Source: Isurus oxyrinchus (taxonomy: Eukaryota). From it: DNA of 64,000 nucleotides. Below, piece after piece: positions 16,097 through 49,825 of this stretch. Each line of letters opens with the position of its first letter. Position 1 is the stretch's first letter. The DNA lies in NCBI GenBank assembly GCA_026770705.1, contig JANJGN010000026.1:36332001-36396000 (forward strand), written 5' to 3'. The notes beneath the pieces were generated by a model. That model ran no database searches and had not been told where the DNA came from. It worked only from the letters and a program-made list of their open reading frames with translations. The position numbers were made by a program, and so were the translations under genes.

Positions 16097-16145
16097 ATGA
16101 TGGTGCTCTTCCTGTACCTCTGTTTGTTTCTAGTTAGCTTTACTT
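16097..16145 (+). CDS. Leader exon of IgH-like V gene
   Basis: MMVLFLYLCLFLVSFT plus 1 nt (phase 1), donor gtgagt, 120-bp intron to the V exon. Confidence 0.9.
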
Positions 16146-16265
16146 GTGAGTGCTGATCATTTATTGATCGTAGAGTCATTAATATTTTAAATATTCTGGT
16201 TTACTTTGTTGCATTTTAAAATGTCTCTTTTCACCGAGATTTGCTCCTTTATAATTTGCTCGTAG

Positions 16266-16565
16266 GTGTCCGGGCCAGCATTGTGCTAACCCAACCGGAT
16301 TCCATCTCCAAAAACATTGGTGACACTCTCCAACTGTCTTGTGCGGTGAGTGGGTACGATATCAACCAACATCATATGCACTGGATTAGAGAGGTCGCCG
16401 GGGGAGGGTTGGAATCCATACTCGCTTATAGGAAAGGGTACAACACCTCTTACGCGCCTGGAGTTCAAAGTCGAATCACTTTTTCAACTGAATCTTCCAC
16501 AACCTATGTTGAGTTGAATAATTTGAAAACCAAGGACACGGCCATCTATTACTGTGCGAGGCAGT
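16266..16565 (+). CDS. Intact IgH-type V segment (IgW-like / TCR-associated Ig-like V)
   Basis: Acceptor cgtag. SIVLTQP...LQLSCAVSG...MHWIRE...GLE...YAPGVQSRITFS...DTAIYYCARQ, in frame with the leader and with no stops. Confidence 0.92.
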
Positions 16566-16604
16566 CACGGTGAGAGAAACCAAGGCTGGACCCAGGAAAA
16601 AACA
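16566..16604 (+). other. 23-bp-spacer RSS of VH
   Basis: CACGGTG, 23 bp, GAAAAAACA (nonamer non-consensus). Confidence 0.8.
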
Positions 16605-16937
16605 GAACGAGGGGGAATCTAAACGCTCCAGGCAGAACACCTCGTTCAGAAACAATGTTCGTAATACAGTCTGACTCTGAACCTCGAGTTACCCCTTAAC
16701 AAATGAATTTCAGCAAAACAATTGTTTGCTTTCTCATGTGTATTATGTTTAGCAAAAATGTTTGGAGACCCAGGGGCTAACGTTTCAACAATATGCTATT
16801 GAAGGATTTTAGAAGGACTGGCGATACATACCTATCAGTTGGAATGAATCTATCCTGAACACTTCTCATCGTTGACAGTAAAGCAAACGCTCGTGAAATG
16901 GAGTCTGAAAGTCAGGATTTGATCAGAAAGGGAATGC

Positions 16938-17012
16938 AGTATTTGTGCGGGCGTGTGTCACTGTGATACTATGGGGTGGGGTATCACATTACTAACTGTC
17001 AATACAAAAAAC
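16938..17012 (+). other. D segment (16966-16984) flanked by 12/12 RSSs
   Basis: AGTATTTGT-12-CACTGTG | ATACTATGGGGTGGGGTAT | CACATTA-12-ACAAAAAAC. Confidence 0.85.
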
Positions 17013-17340
17013 CCGACAGAACTTATAGGCTCAGTCTGGATCACTGACTGCGAGTATGAGTTCGCTATACATGTGGTGAAGCAGTGTTGATATTGTAATC
17101 CAGAACTGAAACTCTCGCCGGGTTTAAGAGAGAGAGAGAGAGAACTGCTAGATAATTATTCAGGAATCAGTTGGTGATTGGAAGAAGCATTCAATTTGGG
17201 CAATCAAATGAGGAAAGACTGATGTATAAACATGAAAATTAATGAAATTGTACCTTTGTAATGCTTTAGAAATCTATTGTTAGTTGTGCGATGTTACTTT
17301 CTAAAAGAATGGCCTCTTTCCTCAATTTTATGCAGGACCC

Positions 17341-17379
17341 ATTTATTGTGTGGCCCATTGCAGGGAATGTAACACAGTG
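17341..17379 (+). other. 23-bp-spacer RSS of JH
   Basis: ATTTATTGT, 23 bp, CACAGTG. Confidence 0.8.
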
Positions 17380-17433
17380 GTACTGATAGCCTTGACTACT
17401 GGGGACAAGGTACCAAAGTTACAGTGACGGCAG
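17380..17433 (+). CDS. IgH-type J segment
   Basis: TDSLDYWGQGTKVTVTA plus G, donor gtaaga; carries the WGxG motif. Confidence 0.93.
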
Positions 17434-18037
17434 GTAAGAAACATGCACTATCTTAATAATTAGGTTATATTCCTGTCTTTATCTTAAATTATGTTTTTTT
17501 TAAATTAATTACTTTGGCCATCCATTATGATTAGTGGGCTCTTTAAGTTTGAATGCAATGTTACTTGTGATTGTGCTCAAGGTGCTGTTAGAATAAAGCG
17601 ACTGTTCCAGAGTAGGTGCCGGTCTGGGGTTGAACCTCTCACTAAACTGTTGATTTTATACGGACAGAATCTGACAACAGTAAACAAATGAGTTCTGTGA
17701 CAGTCTATGTCTCTGGCCCTTTTCATGATATATTGATATTCTTTGAGATGATGTGATACCGTAGTATTGTGACAGAGTTGAACATTCGCGAATCTTCGCT
17801 GTGAAACACAGAACTATTTCAAATAGACCATTGCTAAGTCCTTCATTTGAAATACACTCCGAGAGCAAATCTGTTTTATGTCATGTTATTATGTTTTACA
17901 ATGTGGATAATTTACTGCGAGCATCTAGTGAGAAAAGAATATTAGAATCACAGATCATTTCAATGTGATTTTATTGAAGAAAGAAAAGCATTTGCCAGTT
18001 GTGCGTAACTTTTGGAACGATACACGATATATTCATA

Positions 18038-18205
18038 AAAAAGCAAAATACTGTGGATGCTGGAAATCTGAACTAAAAACAGAAAATGCAGGAACAACTC
18101 AGCACGATTGGCAGCATCTATGGAGAATGAAACAAAGTTAACGTTTCGAGATCGTATGGCTCTTCTTCAGAGTTCTGACTCGAAACATTAACACTGTTTC
18201 TCACT
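18038..18205 (+). repeat. Abundant short interspersed repeat (related copies ~5280, ~37462-37563 reverse, ~45541)
   Basis: aaaagcaaaatactgtggatgctggaaatctg...cagcatct..ggag...gttaacgtttcgag; four related copies in the window. Confidence 0.7.
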
Positions 18206-18879
18206 CAATTTGTTAATATTGATTAAGTTTATATTGGAAGCCCTAAATTGAACTGAGTGATGGAGTGTAGTGTGATAGCCTCTAAAACACAAAAGTTATC
18301 AGAAACAAACAGTTGCAAATTTCACATTTGTTCATCTTATTAAAATACAGCAAACATTTACAAATTTCGGAGGTGATTTAGAGAACGATTTAAATTCGTT
18401 TTTTCCTAATATGTGAAATACGCCCTGAGAATAGACGGAGTTTATGCTATATCATTTTGTTCAAAAACATGTAATGTTTATAAGGGTGCAAGCAGATAGT
18501 AAGACTGCTCATTTTAAATCAATGAAGTTGAATTTGCTTCAAGTAAAATAACATTAACCAAATGTATTCATATATTGAGTGGACACTAAATTTTTAATAT
18601 TGATAAAGTATCCTGTTAACCTAACTTGAACGCTAAAATCTCGCGAATTACCAGGCAGGGGCAGGATTGAAATTGATATTAACTAATACCTTTATAATAC
18701 AGGATACATGAACGAATGGATATTATCTTGCACGAATATTATCTGACAATAATTCGAACTTTTTATCGCATCAAACATAAACAACCTTCTACAATTTCAT
18801 TGTAAACTGGCCAGGATTACCATGAGTGCAAATTCTGAAGGGTTGCAGAGAATATTTAATGGTATGATAGAGCCCTGGA

Positions 18880-20900
18880 GTAATAGAGTCACTGTGGGCA
18901 GGAAGGCATTCGGGGCATCGAGTGCATGCTGGACGTCTGTAGAACAAACCAGTTAGTCACACTCCAATGCTGTACCCTCATAGCCCTGGAAGTTTTGACT
19001 TCCCTGTCGTGTCAATCTAATTTCCTTTCTCAAATCATTGATAGTGTCCACCATTGCCACCATATTTGGCAACGAGTCATACCATGCGCTTCACAAAAGT
19101 CTCTTCCTCACACTGCCAGTACCTTTTTGTCAAAAACTTTACAACACGTGTCCCAAAACTCTTGAACTATTAATTAATGAAAACACCTTTTCTTTGCCTA
19201 TTTCTGTGACACTTTTTATATTTTTGCACATTTTATCAAATCTCCCCTTACTCTCCTTTACTCCAAGGACAACCCAGCTTCTCCAATATAACATTGTAGC
19301 TGAATTTCCTTAAGCCTAGAAGCATTCTGGTAAATCCCCTCTGCATCCTTTCAAGGACAGCCACAGCATTCCTAAATTGTGGTTACCAGAACTGGATGCA
19401 AAACTCAATTTTCTACCTCACCAGTGATTTATTAAGGATCAGCATAACTTTCCTGATTTTGTACTCAATTCCTTTATTTAGGACGCCCAAGATCCAAATG
19501 CATTGCTAAATGATCTCTCAATATGCCCTGCCACATTCAAAGGTCGATGCATATGGACCTCAGGTCCCTCTCCCATCGTGCATTCTTTAGAACGGTACCT
19601 TTAAATCTATATTGCCCCTCCCAGGCTCTACTGTGAAAATGCATCACCTCTCAATTCTGTGTTAAATTCCATCAGAACTTGTTTACCCCTCTGCTAGCCC
19701 ATCTAGTTTCTGTTGCAGCCGCTCGTATCACGCTCACTGTTTGTGACACCACAAGACTTGGTATCATCCACATATTTTGAAACTTCATTCCGCAATCCAA
19801 TGTCCAAGGCATAGAATCTCAATTTATTGCATTTGATCTGCTTTTTACTTGATCAATTTTGCTTATATGCATTATGCACCCTCTATTTTGTTTAATCACA
19901 TTTACTATCTCCCCCTTCATCCAAGGAGCAATGACTTTGGTTCTCCTACGTTTTGCTCTTATTGGAAAGTAACAAGGTTGCACCGAAAATATCTTGTCCT
20001 TAAAATCATCCATTGTTCCGTTGCTGCTTTTCCTCTCAGTCTTTGGTTCTATTTTAACTAAATCCCCTCACATTACATTAAATTTAGTCCTCTTCCAATT
20101 TAGAAATTTTACTTTAGATTGTTACTTGCTGTTCTGTATTACTAGTCAGAACAATATGACACGATGATCACTTCTATTCATGTGTTTTCCACAGACATTT
20201 AGCCCATGTGATCCACGTTATTCCACAACCCAAACTCTAGTAATTCCTCCTTCCTGGTTGGGCCGGAAGCAGACTGGATAAGGAATTCGCCCTGAACACA
20301 TTTCCTAAATTCCTCCCACTCCTTATCCTTCCCTAAAACATTATTTCAATCGACATTTGGGTAATCAGAAAGTCCCAAAATAACACAAGTATTTGCATCT
20401 CTGTGATTTCCCTACAGATTCGCTCTCCTTCTTTCTTTCTCTCTCACTCCTGCCTCTCTTTCACTCTTTCTCCCCACCACCCCACCCCCACACCCACCCC
20501 CCACCCCCACTCTCTCCCACTCATCCCTCTCTCTCTCTCTCTCTTTCGGACTCTCCATTTGGCCAATACAATACCCTTCACAGCGTGGTCAACCCTTTTC
20601 CACTTCTCAGCTCGAACCAAATTGATTCTTCTCTTGTCGCCTCAAGGACATCCTCTCCTTCCAACACTGTAATGTCTTTCCCAGTCAACACCGCAACCCC
20701 ACCTCCTCTTCGCCCTCCCCTGTCTTCGTGCTTACCATTTCTAAGCCGGATTTCCCTCATAGTTACTACATCATTGTCCAAACGGATATTTGTGATTGCA
20801 ACTCACCAACTTTATTCACCAGACTCTTTGCTCTCACATACCCACATTTCAAACCTATCTTTGGATTGCCCGTCAACCATTTTAGTCCATTCTATCTGAT
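18880..20900 (-). mobile_element. CR1-type LINE (endonuclease to 3' end), internally deleted
   Basis: DRGGRRGGGVAVL...EESIWFELRSGKG (APE domain), APWMKGEI linker, CR1 3' tail near 18890. Confidence 0.75.
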
Positions 20901-21049
20901 AGGATGCTATTTCATTCTCTATTAATATCCAACAGTCTACCTCAATTTATGTATTTTATTAACCTGTTCTCCTAAGATATGCTGATGTCCACCCGCCCTC
21001 CACCCCCGCAAATTTAGTTCAAAACATCTCCAGCAACTCTAGTGAATGT

Positions 21050-23215
21050 TTTTCTTCGTTCTTTCATGTGGGTGGCGCTAGCTAGACCACCGTTAATTGC
21101 CTATTCATATTGGCCTTAAGAACCTGGTTATTAGTTGTCTCCTTGAACCGCTGCATTCCATGTGGCCTAGATGCTCAAGCAGTGCTGTGAGAAAGACAGT
21201 TCCAAGGTTTTAACTTGGTGCCAGTGAAGGAATAGTGGTGTCGTACCAAGTCGGGATATGTGTGCCGTTTGCAGGGTAATTTGCAGGTGATGGTGTTCAC
21301 ATGTATTTGCTGCCCATGTCCTTCTAGGTGGCACAGGTCACTTGTTTGGAAGGTACTGTCGAAGGAGCCTTAGTGAGTTGCTGCGGTGCATAATTTAGAT
21401 GATACACGCTGCTGCCACCATGCGTTAGTGGTGGAGGGAGTGACTGCTAAAAGTAGTGGATAGAGGGCAGGGGTCGCAGTCAAGCGGGCTGCTTTTTCCT
21501 GGACGGTGTCGAGCTTCTTGAGTGTTTTATGGGCTGTACTCGCCCAGGCGAGTGGACAGCTTGCCATCACACTCCTGACTTATGTCTTGTAGATGGTGGA
21601 CAGGATTTGTACAATCAGATATTAAGTACCTCACTACCGAATTTCCAGCCTCTGAACTGCCTTTGTCGCCAAAGCACTGCTATGCATTGTCCACTTCTGT
21701 TTTGGGGAAATGGCTATCCCAAAGATGTTGATAGTGGAGGATTCAGCGGTGGTAATGCCATTGAATGTCAAGGCGAGATGTTTGGATAAGCTTTTGTTGG
21801 ATATGTTCGTTGCTTGGCAATTGTGTGGCGTGAATGGTATTTGTCACTTATAAGATCAAGCCAGAATGTTGTTCTTGTCTTGATGCAGCAGTTGGACATG
21901 TACGGCTGCAGTGTCTGAGGAGTCACGGGTGGTGTTGAACATTGTGCAATCATCAGCAAACATCCCCACCTTATAATAGAGGGCGGCTCATTGATGATGC
22001 AGCTGAAGATAGTTGGGCCTAGGCCACTACCCCGAGGAACTCCTGCAGTGATGTCCTGCGACTGAGATGGATGACCTTCAAAAGCAATCATCTTCATTTG
22101 TGCTAGGCATAGCTCCAGTCAGTGGAAAGTTTTCTCCTGATTCCCATTGACTCCACTTTTGCTACGGCTCCCTGATGACCTAGTCAGTCAAAAGCTGCCT
22201 TGTCGTCAAGAGCCGTCATTCTCACTTCACATCTTCCTTTCTGCTATTTTGTCCTTGTTTGAACTAAAGCTGTAATAAGGCCAGGAGCTGAGTGGCCATG
22301 AAGGACCTCAAACTGAGCGCCAATGAACAGGTTATTGCTGAGTTACTGACGCTTGATAGCACTGTCAATGACACTTTCCAACGGTCTGCTAATGATCGAG
22401 AGCAGACTGATGGTTCAGTAATTGACCTGGTTGGATTTGTCCTGCTTTTTCCGCACAAGACACACTGGGAAATGTTCCACATTGCCGGATAGATGTCACT
22501 TGTAACTGTGCTGGAACGGCTCGGCTAGCGGTCTGGCACATCCTGGAGCACTGCTTTTGCAGTATGCAGTGCCTTCAGCCGTTTCTTGATATCACGTGTT
22601 TTGAATCGAATTGGCTGAAGACTGGCAACTGTTGTGCTGGATACCTCAGGACCAGGCCGAGATGGATTACCCACTCGGCACTTCTGGAGTAAGGTTGTTG
22701 TAAATGCTTCAGCCTTGCATTTTGCACTGATGTGCTGGGCTGCTCCATCATTGAGGATGGGGATATTTGTGGAGCCTCCTCCCCATATTCATTGTTGAAT
22801 TGTCTATCGCCAGTCACGGCTGGAAGTAGCAGGATTGAAGAGCTTAGAGCTGATCCATTGGTTGTGGGATTGCTTAGCTTTATCTATAGCATATTGATTC
22901 CGCTCATTGACACACAAGTAGTCCTGTGTTGTAGCTTCACCAGGGTGACGCCTTATTTTTAGGTATGCCTGGTGCTACTCTTGGATTGCCCTCCTGCACT
23001 CTTCATTGAACGAGGGTTTATGCCCCGGTTTGAAGGTAATGGTGGAGTGAGAGATGTACCAGGCCATGAGGTTACAAATTGTGATTGTGTACATTTGTGC
23101 TGCTTCTGATGGCCCAGTGCCTCAAGGTTGCACAGTCTTGAGTTGCTTGATCTGTTTGCAATCTATCCCAATGAGAGCGGTGGTAGTGGCACACAACACG
23201 GTGGAGGTGTCTTCA
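21050..23215 (-). mobile_element. CR1/L2-group LINE RT region, degenerate
   Basis: SQDITAGVPRGSGLGPTIFSCIIN and CPLAW...TLKKLDTVQEKAARL. Other pieces of this family lie at ~37200-38000 (+), ~43800-44160, ~50940-51160 and ~57860-58325. Confidence 0.8.
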
Positions 23216-24729
23216 ATGTGAACACGTGTGCATTAAGTTAAAACGTGAATTAATTGAGAAAACATTTCCCTTGGAAGGCGTCCGAGTTTATAACCTGTGA
23301 CTCCAGATTTTAATGCATTAACTTTCTGTTATTTCCCTTGATAGTTTTAGAGGTTACATTTTTGAAATTATTTCATGCAAGGTGAGTATCACTGGCAAGG
23401 CCAGCATTTGCTGCCCACCCCAAATTGCCTTGGATTGAATTGTGTCCCCTACTATTTCAGATGGCAGTTAAGAGTCACCCACATTTCTGTGGGTCTGGAG
23501 TCACATGTAGACAAGACCAGATCAGGATGGCAGATTCGTTTCCCTAACGGATATTAATAAACCAGATGGCTCTTTATGACAATCGATGGTAGTTTCATGG
23601 TCACCATGACTGAGGCTAGCTTTCAATAGTTGAATTAATTCCACCATCACCGTGGTGGGATTTGAATCTTTGTTCCCAGTGTATTACCATGGATTACTAC
23701 TCCAGTGCCACTAAACCCCCGTCTCATCCTAAAATTGTTTAATTATTGAAATATTTAATTATATTATGATAAGCCAGTGGGCAATCTGCTTACAATGTAA
23801 AGGTTTCCTAATTTACTAACTTCTTCCACCTCAGAAAGCCACTCTTCCAGACAGCAATCCCGCTGGCTGTAAATTACCGGATACAATTCTTTTTTATAGA
23901 AACCAGATCTTACTCGGTTTGCAGTATTATGTAAAGGGAAGGAAACGTTATTCGAAGTCGAAGGGAGGTTTTTAAATGAACAGCAGCTTAATTTAAGTGC
24001 TTGCAAACTTAATATTGTCGGAAATTTACCATTACTCAATTAAGATAAATTACCTTGTTTAATTTGACAAACAATAGAGATTTATCTGCCGAGAGCCAGA
24101 TTGTTGCACCGTTGGTATCTGTTTCTGTGTGTCTGCTCTGTGTGCGGATCAGGAATCCACCCGGCTGGTTATAAACCTTTTAGCTCATTCTCGTGTATTT
24201 CAGATAGTGCAATTCGACACATTGATTCAAGAAGGTTGTATTTCATAGAAAGGTTAAAGCTTGACATAAAGCTTAAGAAGGCGCCTCACAAGCAAGATCA
24301 GTAACCTAGTGTCTGATATATAGAAGGAACAACTTAGAAGCACTACAGAAAAGGCATGGAAGAATCTCTAATCTGTTCAGAACCAATGCTGTTTCTGACC
24401 CACCGTCCCTTGGTGGGCCAGCTTAATGGAAAGCATTAAAGACTAGGGGGAGCTGAATGATCTCCAGCCAATCTTTTCTAAAGTTGACATTACAGCGTAT
24501 GAGAGAACATTGTTAATAGGGCGTTACCCTGTCATCTGTCTTGTGTATCGAGGCAAACGCAGTGTTCAAGCAATGTTAATGTGCATCGACGTAATAAGGT
24601 TGAAGACCTCGAGTCAGCAATATAATATAAATGGTTTCATCTGTCGTAAGAAATAACCAAACGTTAATGAGTTTAAACTTCCATCAAAGACTGTCATTTT
24701 TAAATGAAGAGATTTATCTTGAATATCAG

Positions 24730-25342
24730 ATAATTACTTCATAAGATTTGCCTGACCCTGAGCTCAATTTCAGAACAAAATTATTCAGCAAGTACCTGTA
24801 AAGTCCCAGAAAGCAGCGCCTGTTAATCGTGGATATTATTCCAGCAATTTAAATGGACAGCATGGTGTTTCACTCAGTATCTAACACAGTAACCCATGTT
24901 ACATCTGCCCTGAGATTTTGGAGGGAACATTACTCTGTATTTAACGTGTGCTACACAAGACCTGGGGAATGTTCAATGGTACAGTGTAAAGGGATCCTTA
25001 TTCTATTTATAGCCTGTGTTGCGCCTTACCGAGGAATTTTTGATGCAGACAGATTGATGGGACTTTATTCTCCGTATAATCAGTGCTTTACCTGTCCAAG
25101 GCGAGGTTGCTGGGATGGGATTTTACTCTGTATGTAACTGGCAATGTACCTGCACTGAGAATTTTAAATGGAACATTTGAGAGGGAATATTACTCTGCAT
25201 CCAATCCGTGCCTGTACCTGCCCTGCGAATGCTGTACGAGGATCTTTACTTTATGCAGTGGCAGCTTCTTTCGATACTTAACCTATTCTTTACAAAGACA
25301 TGAGTACTGACAGTTTGGTGTATTATTACTCTCTCTGAGACT
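24730..25342 (+). pseudogene. TCR V pseudogene split by a satellite insertion
   Basis: 5' part KYL*SPRKQRLLIV (cf. WYLQSPGKQP) before 24850; 3' part DMSTDSLVYYYSL*D (cf. DSAVYYCALRD) directly before an RSS. Confidence 0.6.
24853..25250 (+). repeat. Degenerate ~60-70-bp tandem satellite
   Basis: Repeated ...tttgatgggacagtgtagaggga..tttactctgtat.taacc.gtgctgtacctgccctg... units. Confidence 0.75.
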
Positions 25343-25381
25343 CACAGTGATGTGGAGCAATCTCACCACCGTGCAAAAACT
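25343..25381 (+). other. Near-consensus 23-RSS
   Basis: CACAGTG, 23 bp, GCAAAAACT. Confidence 0.85.
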
Positions 25382-39250: not shown

Positions 39251-40314
39251 GATTTAATAATTCTATACATTTTCTACTTGAGAAACAAAAAATCCTTAAA
39301 TAGGAAGGAGGTGAGAAAATGGAAGAACTGAAGGAATGTCTTTAACAGAATAAATGGACAGGAAACACGAAATTTACTCTTTGATGGCATGTGGGCGTCA
39401 CTAGCAAGGCCAGCGTTTGTTGCCTATCTCTAATTGCCCTTGAATTGAGTGGCGTGCTGGGCCATTTGCGAGGGAGGTTAAGGGTCAACCATATTGCAGT
39501 GGCTCTGCCCAGCCATTGATTCAATGGTGGAATTGGCCAATCATGGTGCTGTGACTGATGGAAAGTGTTGGGAGGTCGTCGATTCCAAGGGGCAAACTTC
39601 CATCATCTTTGTGAAAAGTGCATTCAACAATGTTTCTGGGTCGTAACCTCTACATAAATGCAGTCGGTTATTAAGATAGAACGGCCTAATTTTAAGAGGG
39701 ATCACTGTTGAGGTACGCATGTTCTCACCCACTGCAGCGCCCGTGAACACAAAGGGACCTTTCCCAGCTGCGGTAATTGTGGGAGATGCTGACCTCCATG
39801 GAAAGATCATGGGTGGATTGAATCCAAACCCAAACTACCCTCAGCTTGGAATTGCCCGGTCTCTTGCTTGTTCCCTGGAGCGGATGAAATCTCTCAGCCG
39901 TTTGTAGCCCGAATGCTGGAAATCACAGGAGATGATGAATGTTTATCAAGTCAAACGAGGAAACACGGATTCAACAGCAAAAGGGAAAGAAACTAATTTG
40001 CTGTTATCTGAGGTAAAAGGCGGCGATAAATTCACCCTAGATTACAAATCGGTACATTATGAATTTTTCCAGGAAAAGGGAGATGAGAATGTGGAATAAT
40101 TTCATGAACCATGTTTGAAGGCGAATTGGACAGGAGATGATATCAAGAATTATAAGGAGCGAGAAGGAAATGCAGATTTAATGAGCTTAATCATTTCATT
40201 CTGTACTGTAAAATTGTAAGAGCCACTGAAAATATATTCATGAGCAATATTTGTACTTTGTACAAGTTTCCATGCATTGTGTATCTCCATGTGTCTGCAA
40301 TCCCACAATGTTCA

Positions 40315-40475
40315 GGATTTTGTACAGCGCCCTCCGTGCTCTGTATCACTGCGTCTGTAATCCCACCATGTTCAGGATTTTGCACAACTCTCTCCGTGCT
40401 CTGTATCACTGTGTGTCTGTAATCCCACCATGTTCAGGTTTTTGTACGGCTCTCTCCGTGTTCTGCATCACTGTG
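40315..40475 (-). other. Tandem array of three 23-RSSs (62/60-bp period), with a fourth eroded unit at ~40255-40295
   Basis: CACAGTG-23-ACAAAAACC (40475-40437); CACAGTG-23-GCAAAATCC (40413-40375); CGCAGTG-23-ACAAAATCC (40353-40315). Confidence 0.92.
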
Positions 40476-40781
40476 CTGTGGGCCGACTCAGTGCACAGTA
40501 ATACACAGCGGAGTCGCTCAGTTGTAGTTTGAAGATATTTAACCGGCTGATTTTCTCGGCAGAATCGATAGAAGCAGAAATTCTCTCCCCGGCAGCATTT
40601 TCTTTATTCTCCTCTCCTGAAGTGTGTCTCTGAAGCAGATATTCTGGAGCCTGTCCTGGGGACTGACGGTACCAGTGTACTGTGTACTGACAGATACCTG
40701 AATATTCACAGCTTAAAGTAACGGTGTCACCAGCAGCAGAGGTTTGTAAAGGCGGATTCTGGAATATCAGGAGACTGGAAC
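40476..40781 (-). CDS. Intact leaderless TCR-delta V, NAR-TCR supporting V type
   Basis: Acceptor cccttcag, phase 1. GDTVTLSCEYSGICQYTVHWYRQSPGQAPE...DSAVYYCALSRP. Extra Cys in CDR1, no leader exon found upstream, consensus RSS. Confidence 0.9.
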
Positions 40782-44627: not shown

Positions 44628-44972
44628 CAGCTGTGACAGTCACCTCTGTCCCAGAACCGTCTGCATAACCATCTTTCCAAATGGAACCACATCCATATTT
44701 ATACTGAGCTTTACAGTAATAGGTGGCTATGTCTTCAACTCTCACATCCCGAATTTCCAGAGAAAAAATATTTTCTGCTTTATTCATCGACACAACAAAT
44801 CTACCCCCACTGGAGATCCGCTCCCGCTCAGTCCCAGTCTGGGTTTGTCTGAAGAAATGTCTGTCCTATAAACGATGAGAATTACCATGGAAAATGCAGG
44901 TGATGGTGAGAGACTGACACTCCTTCCTGGTCACCGCTGCCGGGGTCTGTACCACTGACTGATTGAAAGAGC
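44628..44972 (-). pseudogene. Germline-joined NAR-like V(D)J exon (phase 1-1, 345 nt) with a single TAG
   Basis: attgccag|SFNQSVVQTPAAVTRKECQSLTITCIFHGNSHRL*DRHFFRQ...EDIATYYCKAQYKYGCGSIWKDGYADGSGTEVTVTA|gtaagt. No internal RSS; TAG at 44866-44868. Confidence 0.9.
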
Positions 44973-48100: not shown

Positions 48101-48872
48101 TGCTGCTTCTAAATGAACATTCCCCCCATTTACAACTTACAATTGTTTCCTTATGTTCCTGTTCTCCTTTATAAGATTAATGCATCATCCTCACTTTCTC
48201 ACTGCACTGTGTTGTTCCACACACAGTAATCAGGGATACAGTTAAATTACAGCAATCACATCTCTCAAACATCTACATTCAATATAGAGAAGTATCTGCA
48301 GTTCCAAACCTTCATATTTCAGTCTGAGGGCGGAAAAGTAGGAAATTGTTTGGTTATATGAAAGAAATGGCGGGGACAATGTCGTTAATTTCAGTCACTG
48401 ATTGTCCAATAATAAAATTCTATCTGGGTCCACATCAGGATCTCTTATATCTGAAGCCCGTTGTGTCACTCTCCCGTTTTTCTCCCGGGTGAGGTATTGA
48501 ACTGGCCGCAGTTGTTTGAGTTTATTCACCAGGTGCCTCATTCACATTGCGCGGCTCGGACTGCAATCTGCTGCCCAGGAGAGAGCTCTGCGACTCCGCT
48601 CCCGGAATCGAAAGGGACAGACCGTGCTCCCTCGGTCACAGGTAACACCGGGAGTGGAGTCCGGATTGTCGACAATCTGCGCTCATTAAAAGTGATTCAG
48701 AGTGTGAGAGTCCGTGATGTTCATGGTGTCCCCGATGTGCCTGTTACACTAATGGTGCTCCAGATTCCGTCAACTCCCACATCCCACCCAAATTCTACTG
48801 ATATCAATAATAAACTGTCGGTGAACGTTACCCGGGACAGGCTGTAACCCGGTGGGGTTTGCACTCACTTAC

Positions 48873-48925
48873 CGGCTGTGACAGTCACCACTGTCCCGGA
48901 TCCATCCGCATAATCAGTAAACCAT
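48873..48925 (-). CDS. NAR-type J segment
   Basis: WFTDYADGSGTVVTVTA plus G, donor gtaagt. Confidence 0.9.
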
Positions 48926-48964
48926 CACAGTGACACCGCTCTCAGTCTCCCCGGTACAACAACC
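48926..48964 (-). other. 23-RSS of NAR-type J
   Basis: GGTTGTTGT-23-CACTGTG on the minus strand. Confidence 0.9.
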
Positions 48965-49282
48965 ACCGACACCTCAACCTGCCGGGAAATCATCATCACC
49001 AGACAGTAGAAACTGCACAAATATTCAGTGGATTTAAATAAATAAACAATATTCAATGTTTAAAAGTCTCTGTCGGTTCAAACTGTTCTTTGTGAGGCCC
49101 TGAGATCTGAGTAAATGATCCCGGAAACGAGATGTTCGCTTCATATAAACAGACAAAATTATTAAAGTAAGAGAACTGAATGGTGGAAATTACAATGAAA
49201 TGTAACCATATCACAGCGATAATAACATCAGCCCAACAATTCACTATCCGGACCCGCAGAATTTATATTGTGACCGGACAGA

Positions 49283-49310
49283 GGTATTTGCTCAGGTCTC
49301 CCCCACTGTG
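49283..49310 (-). other. 12-RSS at the 3' end of the extended NAR-like V
   Basis: CACAGTG-ggggagacctga(12)-GCAAATACC. Confidence 0.88.
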
Positions 49311-49663
49311 ACTTCCCCATACTCCCATCTGTCGTACTGGTACTGAGCTTTACAGTAATAGGTGGCGGTGTCTTCAACTCTCACAACCCAATATTCCAGC
49401 GAAAATGTCTTTTCTGCTTTGTTCACCGACACAACAAATCTCTCTCCCCACCCCCCCCCCCCCACCCCCCCCCCCCCCCCCACCCCCCCCTTGCTGGAGA
49501 TCCGCTCCCACTCTGTCCCGGTCTGGGTTTGTCTGAAGAAAGCCCCACCCGTCAAAGGACGAGCGTAAAAACCACCATAGAAAACGCAGGTGATGAATAG
49601 GGACTGACACTCCTTCCTGGTCACCGCTGCCGGGGTCTGTACCACTGACTGACTGAAAGATAC
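49311..49663 (-). CDS. NAR-TCR-like V with 3' CDR3 extension (probable germline-fused VD); functionality uncertain
   Basis: QSVVQTPAAVTRKECQSLFITC...FFRQTQTGTEWERIS[poly-Gly]RFVVSVNKAEKTFSL...EDTATYYCKAQYQYDRWEYGE. Short FR2 without CDR2, extra FR1 Cys. It is 1 nt out of phase with the leader at the canonical acceptor. Confidence 0.85.
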
Positions 49664-49782
49664 CTGGAAATTAAACAAAGAGAGTTTAATGGACCATCAG
49701 AACCGAATTACAGAACGGGGTTAAAACTCGAGCAGCTTTATATTAAATCCACACAATGTCGGTTTGTTTGATCTGTACTCAC

Positions 49783-49825
49783 GGGGTAAACAGACACACA
49801 GGGTGAAAACAAGGAGGATTCCCAT
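49783..49825 (-). CDS. Leader exon of NAR-like V
   Basis: MGILLVFTLCVCLP plus 1 nt, donor gtgagt. Confidence 0.9.

Follow-up and report, generated by a model that had tools for sequence, protein, structure and literature searches.

A Truncated IgM-Type V-D-J Unit with an IgW-Lineage V and No Constant Region among Shark NAR-TCR Cassettes: Probably a Drifting Relic

Introduction

What is an IgH-type leader-V-D-J unit doing among TCR V genes when no constant exon follows it? The unit that raises this question occupies positions 16097-17433 of the window, i.e., of the 64,000-nucleotide stretch of Isurus oxyrinchus DNA that was analysed (G000:C26:36332001-36396000; positions given below without a contig name are those of the window). 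Deiss et al. reportedly described VH-delta/TAILV segments in shark TCR-delta in 2019, and their work is said to describe, perhaps, an IgH minicluster inside the nurse shark TCR-delta locus. Several of the ingredients are already known in sharks: an IgH V can be used in TCR-delta, a VH can stand alone in a TCR region, and segments can be joined in the germ line. PMC12227049 describes rearrangement of VH to D-delta, the use of an IgM or IgW V in TCR-delta, and V exons that are intermixed across IgH clusters and TCR genes; its table S1 also gives lone 'IgMV', 'Ig-TCRV', and 'Ig-TCRd V' models among the TCR V of three shark/ray species. The literature that we searched, which covered few subscription papers, contained no report of a C-less germline V-DD-J among NAR-TCR cassettes. 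Such a unit is a concrete intermediate, i.e., an IgM cluster with V, D, and J but no C inside the TCR-delta/NAR-TCR region, and an intermediate of this kind is expected by the models for the origin of the VH-delta segment and of NAR-TCR.

An initial annotation of this DNA had offered two readings: a VH donor for TCR-delta rearrangement by inversion, or an IgH analogue of the NAR-TCR distal cassette. We propose here, with a probability of about 0.6, that the unit is a truncated, C-less IgM-type minicluster carrying an IgW-lineage V, and that it is a drifting relic with at most a minor donation of its VH to TCR-delta.

Anatomy of the V-D-J Unit

An open leader and VH, a single D, a 23/12-12/23 RSS set, and a WGQG J with its donor had been claimed initially, and all of them are present:

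16097..16145, plus strand: leader exon, MMVLFLYLCLFLVSFT, with a GT donor at 16146
16266..16565, plus strand: VH exon, open, of IgW lineage; PF07686 (V-set), E 6.8e-10
16566..16604, plus strand: V 23-RSS, CACGGTG / GAAAAAACA, the start of the nonamer being degenerate
16938..16965, minus strand: D 5' 12-RSS of IgM D1 type, by signal comparison with IgM clusters
16966..16984, plus strand: single D of 19 nt, likely a germline D1-D2 fusion, with all three forward frames open
16985..17012, plus strand: D 3' 12-RSS of IgM D2 type, CACATTA / ACAAAAAAC
17341..17379, minus strand: J 23-RSS, CACTGTG / ACAATAAAT
17380..17433, plus strand: IgM-type JH with a WGQG motif and the donor GTAAGA, TDSLDYWGQGTKVTVTA

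The leader-V intron runs to 16265. The VH retains the canonical Cys and Trp, and its mature domain contains only the two canonical cysteines. At the residues that we take to be Kabat positions 47 and 39, which presumably contribute to light-chain pairing, Ser replaces the conserved Trp and Glu replaces Gln. Single-sequence fold prediction was uninformative (pLDDT 43), and no octamer was found within 400 bp 5' of the leader. The order of the elements, their spacers, and the gaps of ~330 bp agree with the IgM miniloci of the same genome, so the unit is not a chance assembly. It resembles the elasmobranch IgM minicluster, V-D1-D2-J-C-mu (PMC2435157, PMC5192425), in RSS order, spacing, D signals, J, and J-C intron, and differs from it by one, likely fused, D, by its IgW-lineage V, and by the lack of C exons. 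Indeed, a functional IgM minicluster combines V, two D, and J in ~2 kb, with 23/12-23/12-12/23 signals and with C-mu exons ~6 kb behind J, whereas the unit has one D and no C-mu exons at that distance.

A Likely Germline D1-D2 Fusion

The single D is likely a germline fusion of D1 with D2, since its 5' signal is that of an IgM D1, its 3' signal is that of an IgM D2, and the gap alignments agree. Indeed, the V-D gap of the unit aligns best with the IgM V-D1 gap (score 132, other pairings 82-108), and its D-J gap aligns best with IgM D2-J gaps (157 and 124.5, for a shuffle maximum of 108). The D is identical in the 10/10 copies of the unit that this genome holds and is spanned by contigs of two related organisms; hence, the single D is inherited and not somatic. 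RAG would have fused D1 to D2 in the germ line, and a plain deletion could have done so instead; the 19-nt D has no inner RSS remnant, and the joint itself is unreadable without an unjoined close parent.

Germline VD, VDD, and VDJ forms have already been described in sharks (PMC2193156, PMC5192425), and a germline D1-D2 fusion is described for nurse shark IgNAR type III (PMC4622739). Like these germline-joined shark Ig genes (PMC2193156, PMC4622739), the unit is partly pre-joined, inherited, and copied; unlike them, it is an IgM-type V-DD-J, a form that appears in the account of PMC2435157 only as a somatic intermediate, in the nurse shark thymus.

A separate observation comes from a related species. 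In a contig of run X2 (corresponding to window 16555-17397), a V end and a JH are joined in frame across 33 intervening letters, possibly as a germline-joined VDJ of this or another cluster. We considered this contig as a member of the same V family and set it aside; its short side has only 32 letters, which makes the assignment impossible.

An IgW-Lineage V on IgM-Type D and J

The V falls inside the IgW-V clade, with a support of 100/100 in the larger tree and 98/99 in the smaller one. Among named sequences, horn shark IgW W26 is the closest to it (59/95 residues, 62%), with similar CDR1 (HHM) and CDR2 (YRK.YNT); the sister relationship with W26 obtains only 89/82 in the larger tree and is unresolved in the smaller one. 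Although the V groups with the IgW-V clade, the unit lacks the IgW-type D set, J, and C exons: the IgW clusters of this genome carry three D, a WGTG-type J, and IgW C exons, none of which is found here. The search for longer proteins containing the unit V returned a single match, the IgW model of a ray, at 47%.

The initial annotation had proposed to place the V by a phylogeny with IgM, IgW, and TAILV, and the V grouped with IgW V. The VH-like segments adjoining D-delta/C-delta belong to a separate, IgM-derived family (34-38/95 identical to the unit V), and one clade uniting them with the unit V was rejected by the AU test (p 0.0004, smaller tree); the C-delta-proximal segments in this comparison were chosen by position, with no labelled TAILV sequence, and two putative TAILV, both frameshifted, entered the larger tree only. 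The frameshifted segment lying 2 kb before the VH-like segments is called TAILV only by its position in table S1 of PMC12227049. The VH-delta, TAILV, and 'Ig-TCRd V' segments of shark TCR-delta loci (PMC12227049) are likewise IgH-type V with a 23-RSS, among TCR genes and without IgH C. In contrast with the C-delta-adjoining VH of this genome, beside which no IgH-type D or J was seen, the unit has retained a DD and a J of its own, at a distance of megabases.

Germline clusters pairing an IgW-lineage V with IgM-type D1-D2-J were also seen elsewhere, at C38:9124300-9137700 and on C42, C49, C20, C146, and C506. Four C-mu exons are present in the C38 copy, and at 6 kb behind its J, the C49 copy contains a constant exon. 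Within the IgW-V group, the V of these clusters constitute a clade of their own (97/97), apart from the window V.

Absence of a Constant Region

The initial claim that no intact CH exon lies downstream was upheld by two kinds of search. In the window, tblastn with 14 IgM/IgW constant-domain queries (from this genome and from ray IgW) identified no constant exon, the best E being 0.024. The C1-set HMM scan that had been suggested, done with 13 IgM/IgW constant domains over 194 kb around the window, found no CH exon at the normal position and only one set, C-mu1-4, at C26:36442132-36444928. This nearest C-mu1-4 lies 92.7 kb past the J, behind the V-D1-D2-J of its own, complete IgM cluster. The 20 kb behind each of the other 9 copies contain no constant exon either by the HMM of 13 domains. 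We also looked for degenerate C exons behind the J, and tblastn, HMM, and blastn revealed none. Of the 973 candidates of the genome-wide C1-set search, 150 were scored, so the spans fully checked for C are the 194 kb and the 20-kb stretches.

What follows the J is the beginning of an IgM intron that breaks off into TCR DNA:

17434..24946, plus strand: what remains of an IgM J-C-mu1 intron, with interspersed repeats and with collinear low-copy pieces at 17394-17510, 18412-18866, and 23737-24946
24921..25231, no strand assigned: minisatellite at the point where the IgM intron gives way to TCR DNA
25306..25381, plus strand: 3' stub of a conventional V-alpha/delta, with its last codons and a 23-RSS at 25343-25381

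The piece at 23737-24946 is homologous to the J-C introns of 4/4 IgM clusters tested (scores 183-401, for shuffle maxima of 44-50). In the two closest intact clusters, the homology extends to ~4.0-4.1 kb in an intron of 5.5-6.0 kb, so that the remnant ends 1.5-1.9 kb before the C-mu1 position. The V-alpha/delta stub is identical at 67/83 positions to a member of an intact family. The simplest history would be an old deletion that took C-mu together with the 5' part, i.e., most, of a TCR V. We also considered whether the plus-strand stub at 25.3 kb could be a supporting V-delta in decay and rejected this, its relatives being conventional leader-type V-alpha/delta. As a side observation, the low-copy intron segment 23737-24946 is ~67% identical between divergent IgM groups and could hold an intronic enhancer.

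The complete cluster downstream suggests another source of a constant region. The VDJ might use the C-mu of this next IgM cluster, via AID-driven inter-cluster switching or long-range splicing, and produce an IgM with an IgW-type V. The J donor is indeed intact, as is part of the IgM intron, a same-strand IgM V lies 80-93 kb downstream in 10/10 copies with a C1-set exon behind it in at least 8/10, and switching between shark clusters has been reported (cited in the review PMC5192425). We nevertheless regard this borrowing as clearly improbable. The linkage reflects one duplicated block, so its cases are not independent; the 92.7-kb gap contains another V-D-D-J; a switching B cell would presumably first need a receptor; and Trp47, at the light-chain interface, is lost.

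Copies of the Unit and Traces of Selection

DNA and protein searches agree on 10 copies of the unit, five on C26 and five on four small contigs, the latter being perhaps in part other haplotypes. The copies are 88-100% identical in protein, while the next relatives reach 57-63%, and they sit in a duplicated block that is 87-99% identical over 20 kb. All 10 are C-less and have in common the junction with TCR V DNA, within ~8 kb of the J. A search with DD-J retrieved these 10 copies again; of its 107 candidates, 40 were scored, and none of these was a close parent with a C. The initial annotation had noted neither this number of copies nor the likely fusion of the D. Two more blocks retain the junction and gave no VDJ match (30 kb examined in one of them). 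In the reading that we prefer, the C-less unit would have been copied, after the deletion, with the NAR-TCR cassettes as a likely drifting passenger.

Besides the IgM-type D signals, the intron break, and the junction found in 10/10 copies, several features of the copies support such a relic. Across their leader and V, 8 synonymous and 24 nonsynonymous distinct changes were counted (pN/pS 0.88, p 0.44), mostly in framework, and the farthest copy has a dN of 0.066 for a dS of 0.067. Protein-level selection on the V was not detected since the copies arose. The spacer or the nonamer is altered in 4/10 copies. Contigs of 4 runs from 3 related organisms cover 30/30 bins of the unit, and in one of these three organisms (2/4 runs), a 1-nt insertion shifts the frame of the V.

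On the other hand, several observations speak against drift. The leader-V is open with its splice sites, and the CAC heptamer ends are kept, in 10/10 copies. No indel is present in the 348 coding bases, where 3.2 would be expected from the 13 indel patterns of the 1423 non-coding bases nearby (P about 0.04), and fewer RSS columns are variable (8/153) than in the flanks (141/1423, p 0.06). Moreover, a tract of ~5.5 kb from the leader on (window 16100-21600 compared with C26:38.73 Mb) is 1-2% diverged in flanks diverged by 4-8%, which looks like gene conversion and indicates that the unit is being homogenised. Finally, dN/dS of the V to the IgW V of this genome is 0.35-0.51, which, together with the likeness of CDR1 and CDR2 to those of W26, argues that the V was under selection for long.

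The NAR-TCR Neighborhood

A NAR-TCR cassette consists of leader, V, D, and J, carries 23/12-12/23 signals, and has no C of its own, and its V has an extra a-b loop (framework-1) cysteine; in the distal cassette, a same-strand, leaderless supporting V-delta lies a few kb behind the J (PMC1845163). Such elements occupy the minus strand beyond the unit:

40437..40781, minus strand: leaderless supporting V-delta with a CDR1 cysteine and a 23-RSS
44628..44972, minus strand: germline-joined NAR-TCR VDJ exon, with a stop codon in this copy
48870..49825, minus strand: NAR-TCR leader, V(D), and J, with the V(D) 12-RSS at 49310-49283 and the J 23-RSS at 48964-48926

Proteins of the great white shark match the supporting V-delta at 95-98% identity. 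The germline-joined NAR-TCR exon stands directly before this V-delta in 10/10 blocks, its V part having a stop in 3 and being open in 7. Behind the supporting V-delta, at window 40260-40475, we also observed a tandem array of 23-RSS, of which 2 to 6 were detected per block.

The unit had been described as inverted within a TCR V array. Its opposite orientation is real, as it lies on the plus strand and the three other V exons of the window all lie on the minus strand; the array itself is made of NAR-TCR cassettes, and a V-alpha/delta stub lies on the plus strand too. This inversion is local and not unusual: among the 53 supporting-V-delta-family matches listed on C26 at >=69% identity (from 150 scored of 1700 candidates), a hand count gives 31 on the plus strand and 22 on the minus strand.

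Taken directly, the idea that the unit is an IgH analogue of the NAR-TCR distal cassette is not supported. The unit is a direct neighbor of such a cassette and has the same 23 / 12-12 / 23 scheme, one D, and no C of its own. In contrast, it has no NAR-type V, no framework-1 cysteine, and no same-strand leaderless V-delta behind its J, which is followed by the IgM intron and the V-alpha/delta stub. The supporting V-delta faces the unit in 10/10 copies. The next one listed on the same strand is ~127 kb away for the window copy, past a full IgM cluster, and 127-129 kb away in 5/10 copies, with none nearer listed for the other copies; direct splicing of the unit J to a supporting V-delta is therefore excluded by anatomy. 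Among the 62 shark/ray protein matches listed, out of 112, no gene model has an IgH-type V attached straight to a supporting V-delta.

An indirect route can be drawn, in which VH-DD would join the facing NAR-TCR J somatically by a 32-kb inversion, and the product would then splice to the supporting V-delta. The DD 3' 12-RSS (16985, plus strand) does face the NAR-TCR J 23-RSS (48926-48964, minus strand) in agreement with the 12/23 rule, an unrearranged NAR-TCR J accompanies the facing supporting V-delta in 8/10 copies within the span examined, and the pairing face gains polarity through the replacements Trp47Ser and Gln39Glu. Yet the germline-joined NAR-TCR exon, placed before the supporting V-delta in every block, would need to be skipped, the V has no framework-1 (linking) cysteine, the unit's own J is only 400 bp off, and the whole arrangement is one ancestral block. 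Moreover, joining in shark IgH takes place almost wholly within a cluster and was seen between clusters once in 58 thymic clones (PMC2435157). These points make the route very improbable. It would likewise be surprising, to a high degree, if the unit were a latent distal module from which a two-V TCR-delta of a new type is built: in thymocytes, VH-DD would invert onto the facing NAR-TCR J, and an unpaired IgW-type V, its light-chain face already polar, would be carried on the supporting V-delta. If true, this would give a shark receptor like marsupial TCR-mu and a living model for the movement of an IgH V onto TCR-delta.

Among the cassettes themselves, the NAR-TCR V at window 49283-49663 is germline-fused to its D, with a 12-RSS behind it, and carries an inserted G run that keeps the frame; at this place, related copies show either a deletion or a break.

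Possible Donation of the V to TCR-Delta

A TCR constant exon is located on the minus strand at C26:29.90 Mb, 6.4 Mb from the unit, a distance measured in one assembly. This exon is taken as C-delta, on the strength of its D/J signals and because it matches the constant portion of a NAR-TCR model at 70-74%. The V 23-RSS of the unit fits D-delta, which has a 5' 12-RSS (12/23 rule). Joining of V to D-delta amounts to a 6.4-Mb inversion for the window copy, and all 5 C26 copies are inverted. Judging from the signals, the donation by inversion that the initial annotation had suggested would thus be mechanically possible.

IgH rearrangement is known to occur in shark thymocytes (PMC2435157). For a drifting relic in such cells, joining of V-DD-J in cis would be a dead end without a constant region, and joining of V to D-delta by inversion would yield a low-frequency IgH-V/TCR-delta chain, the only likely outlet of the unit. 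A more demanding version makes the V a regular, selected contributor to TCR-delta via inversional joining, the loss of C-mu having dedicated it to T cells. The open frames and CAC ends of 10/10 copies, the indel deficit, the conversion tract, and the compatible D-delta signal would fit a maintained VH-delta family, as would the frequency of inverted V on C26 (31/53 listed) and the lone IgH-type V found among the TCR V of other sharks and rays (PMC12227049, table S1). However, the pN/pS of 0.88 with changes mostly in framework, the degenerate V nonamer, and the frameshift in a relative do not point to maintenance, the unit has its own D 370 bp from the V in a system where joining is almost wholly intra-cluster (PMC2435157), and the 6.4-Mb distance depends on a single assembly. 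We hold regular contribution to be rather unlikely.

Since the V family of the unit is C-less throughout this genome, any transcript containing it would reveal its route, whether through D-delta, a neighboring C-mu, or a NAR-TCR J. This V family therefore offers a clean test of inter-locus joining and, if silent, the unit is an ordinary pseudogene.

Lastly, two TCR-delta cores, each with a VH-like V, a D, a J set, and a C, were observed at C26:29902121-29934152 and C242:584698-617229. They are about 90% identical in long blocks and represent either a duplicated delta locus or two very divergent haplotypes.
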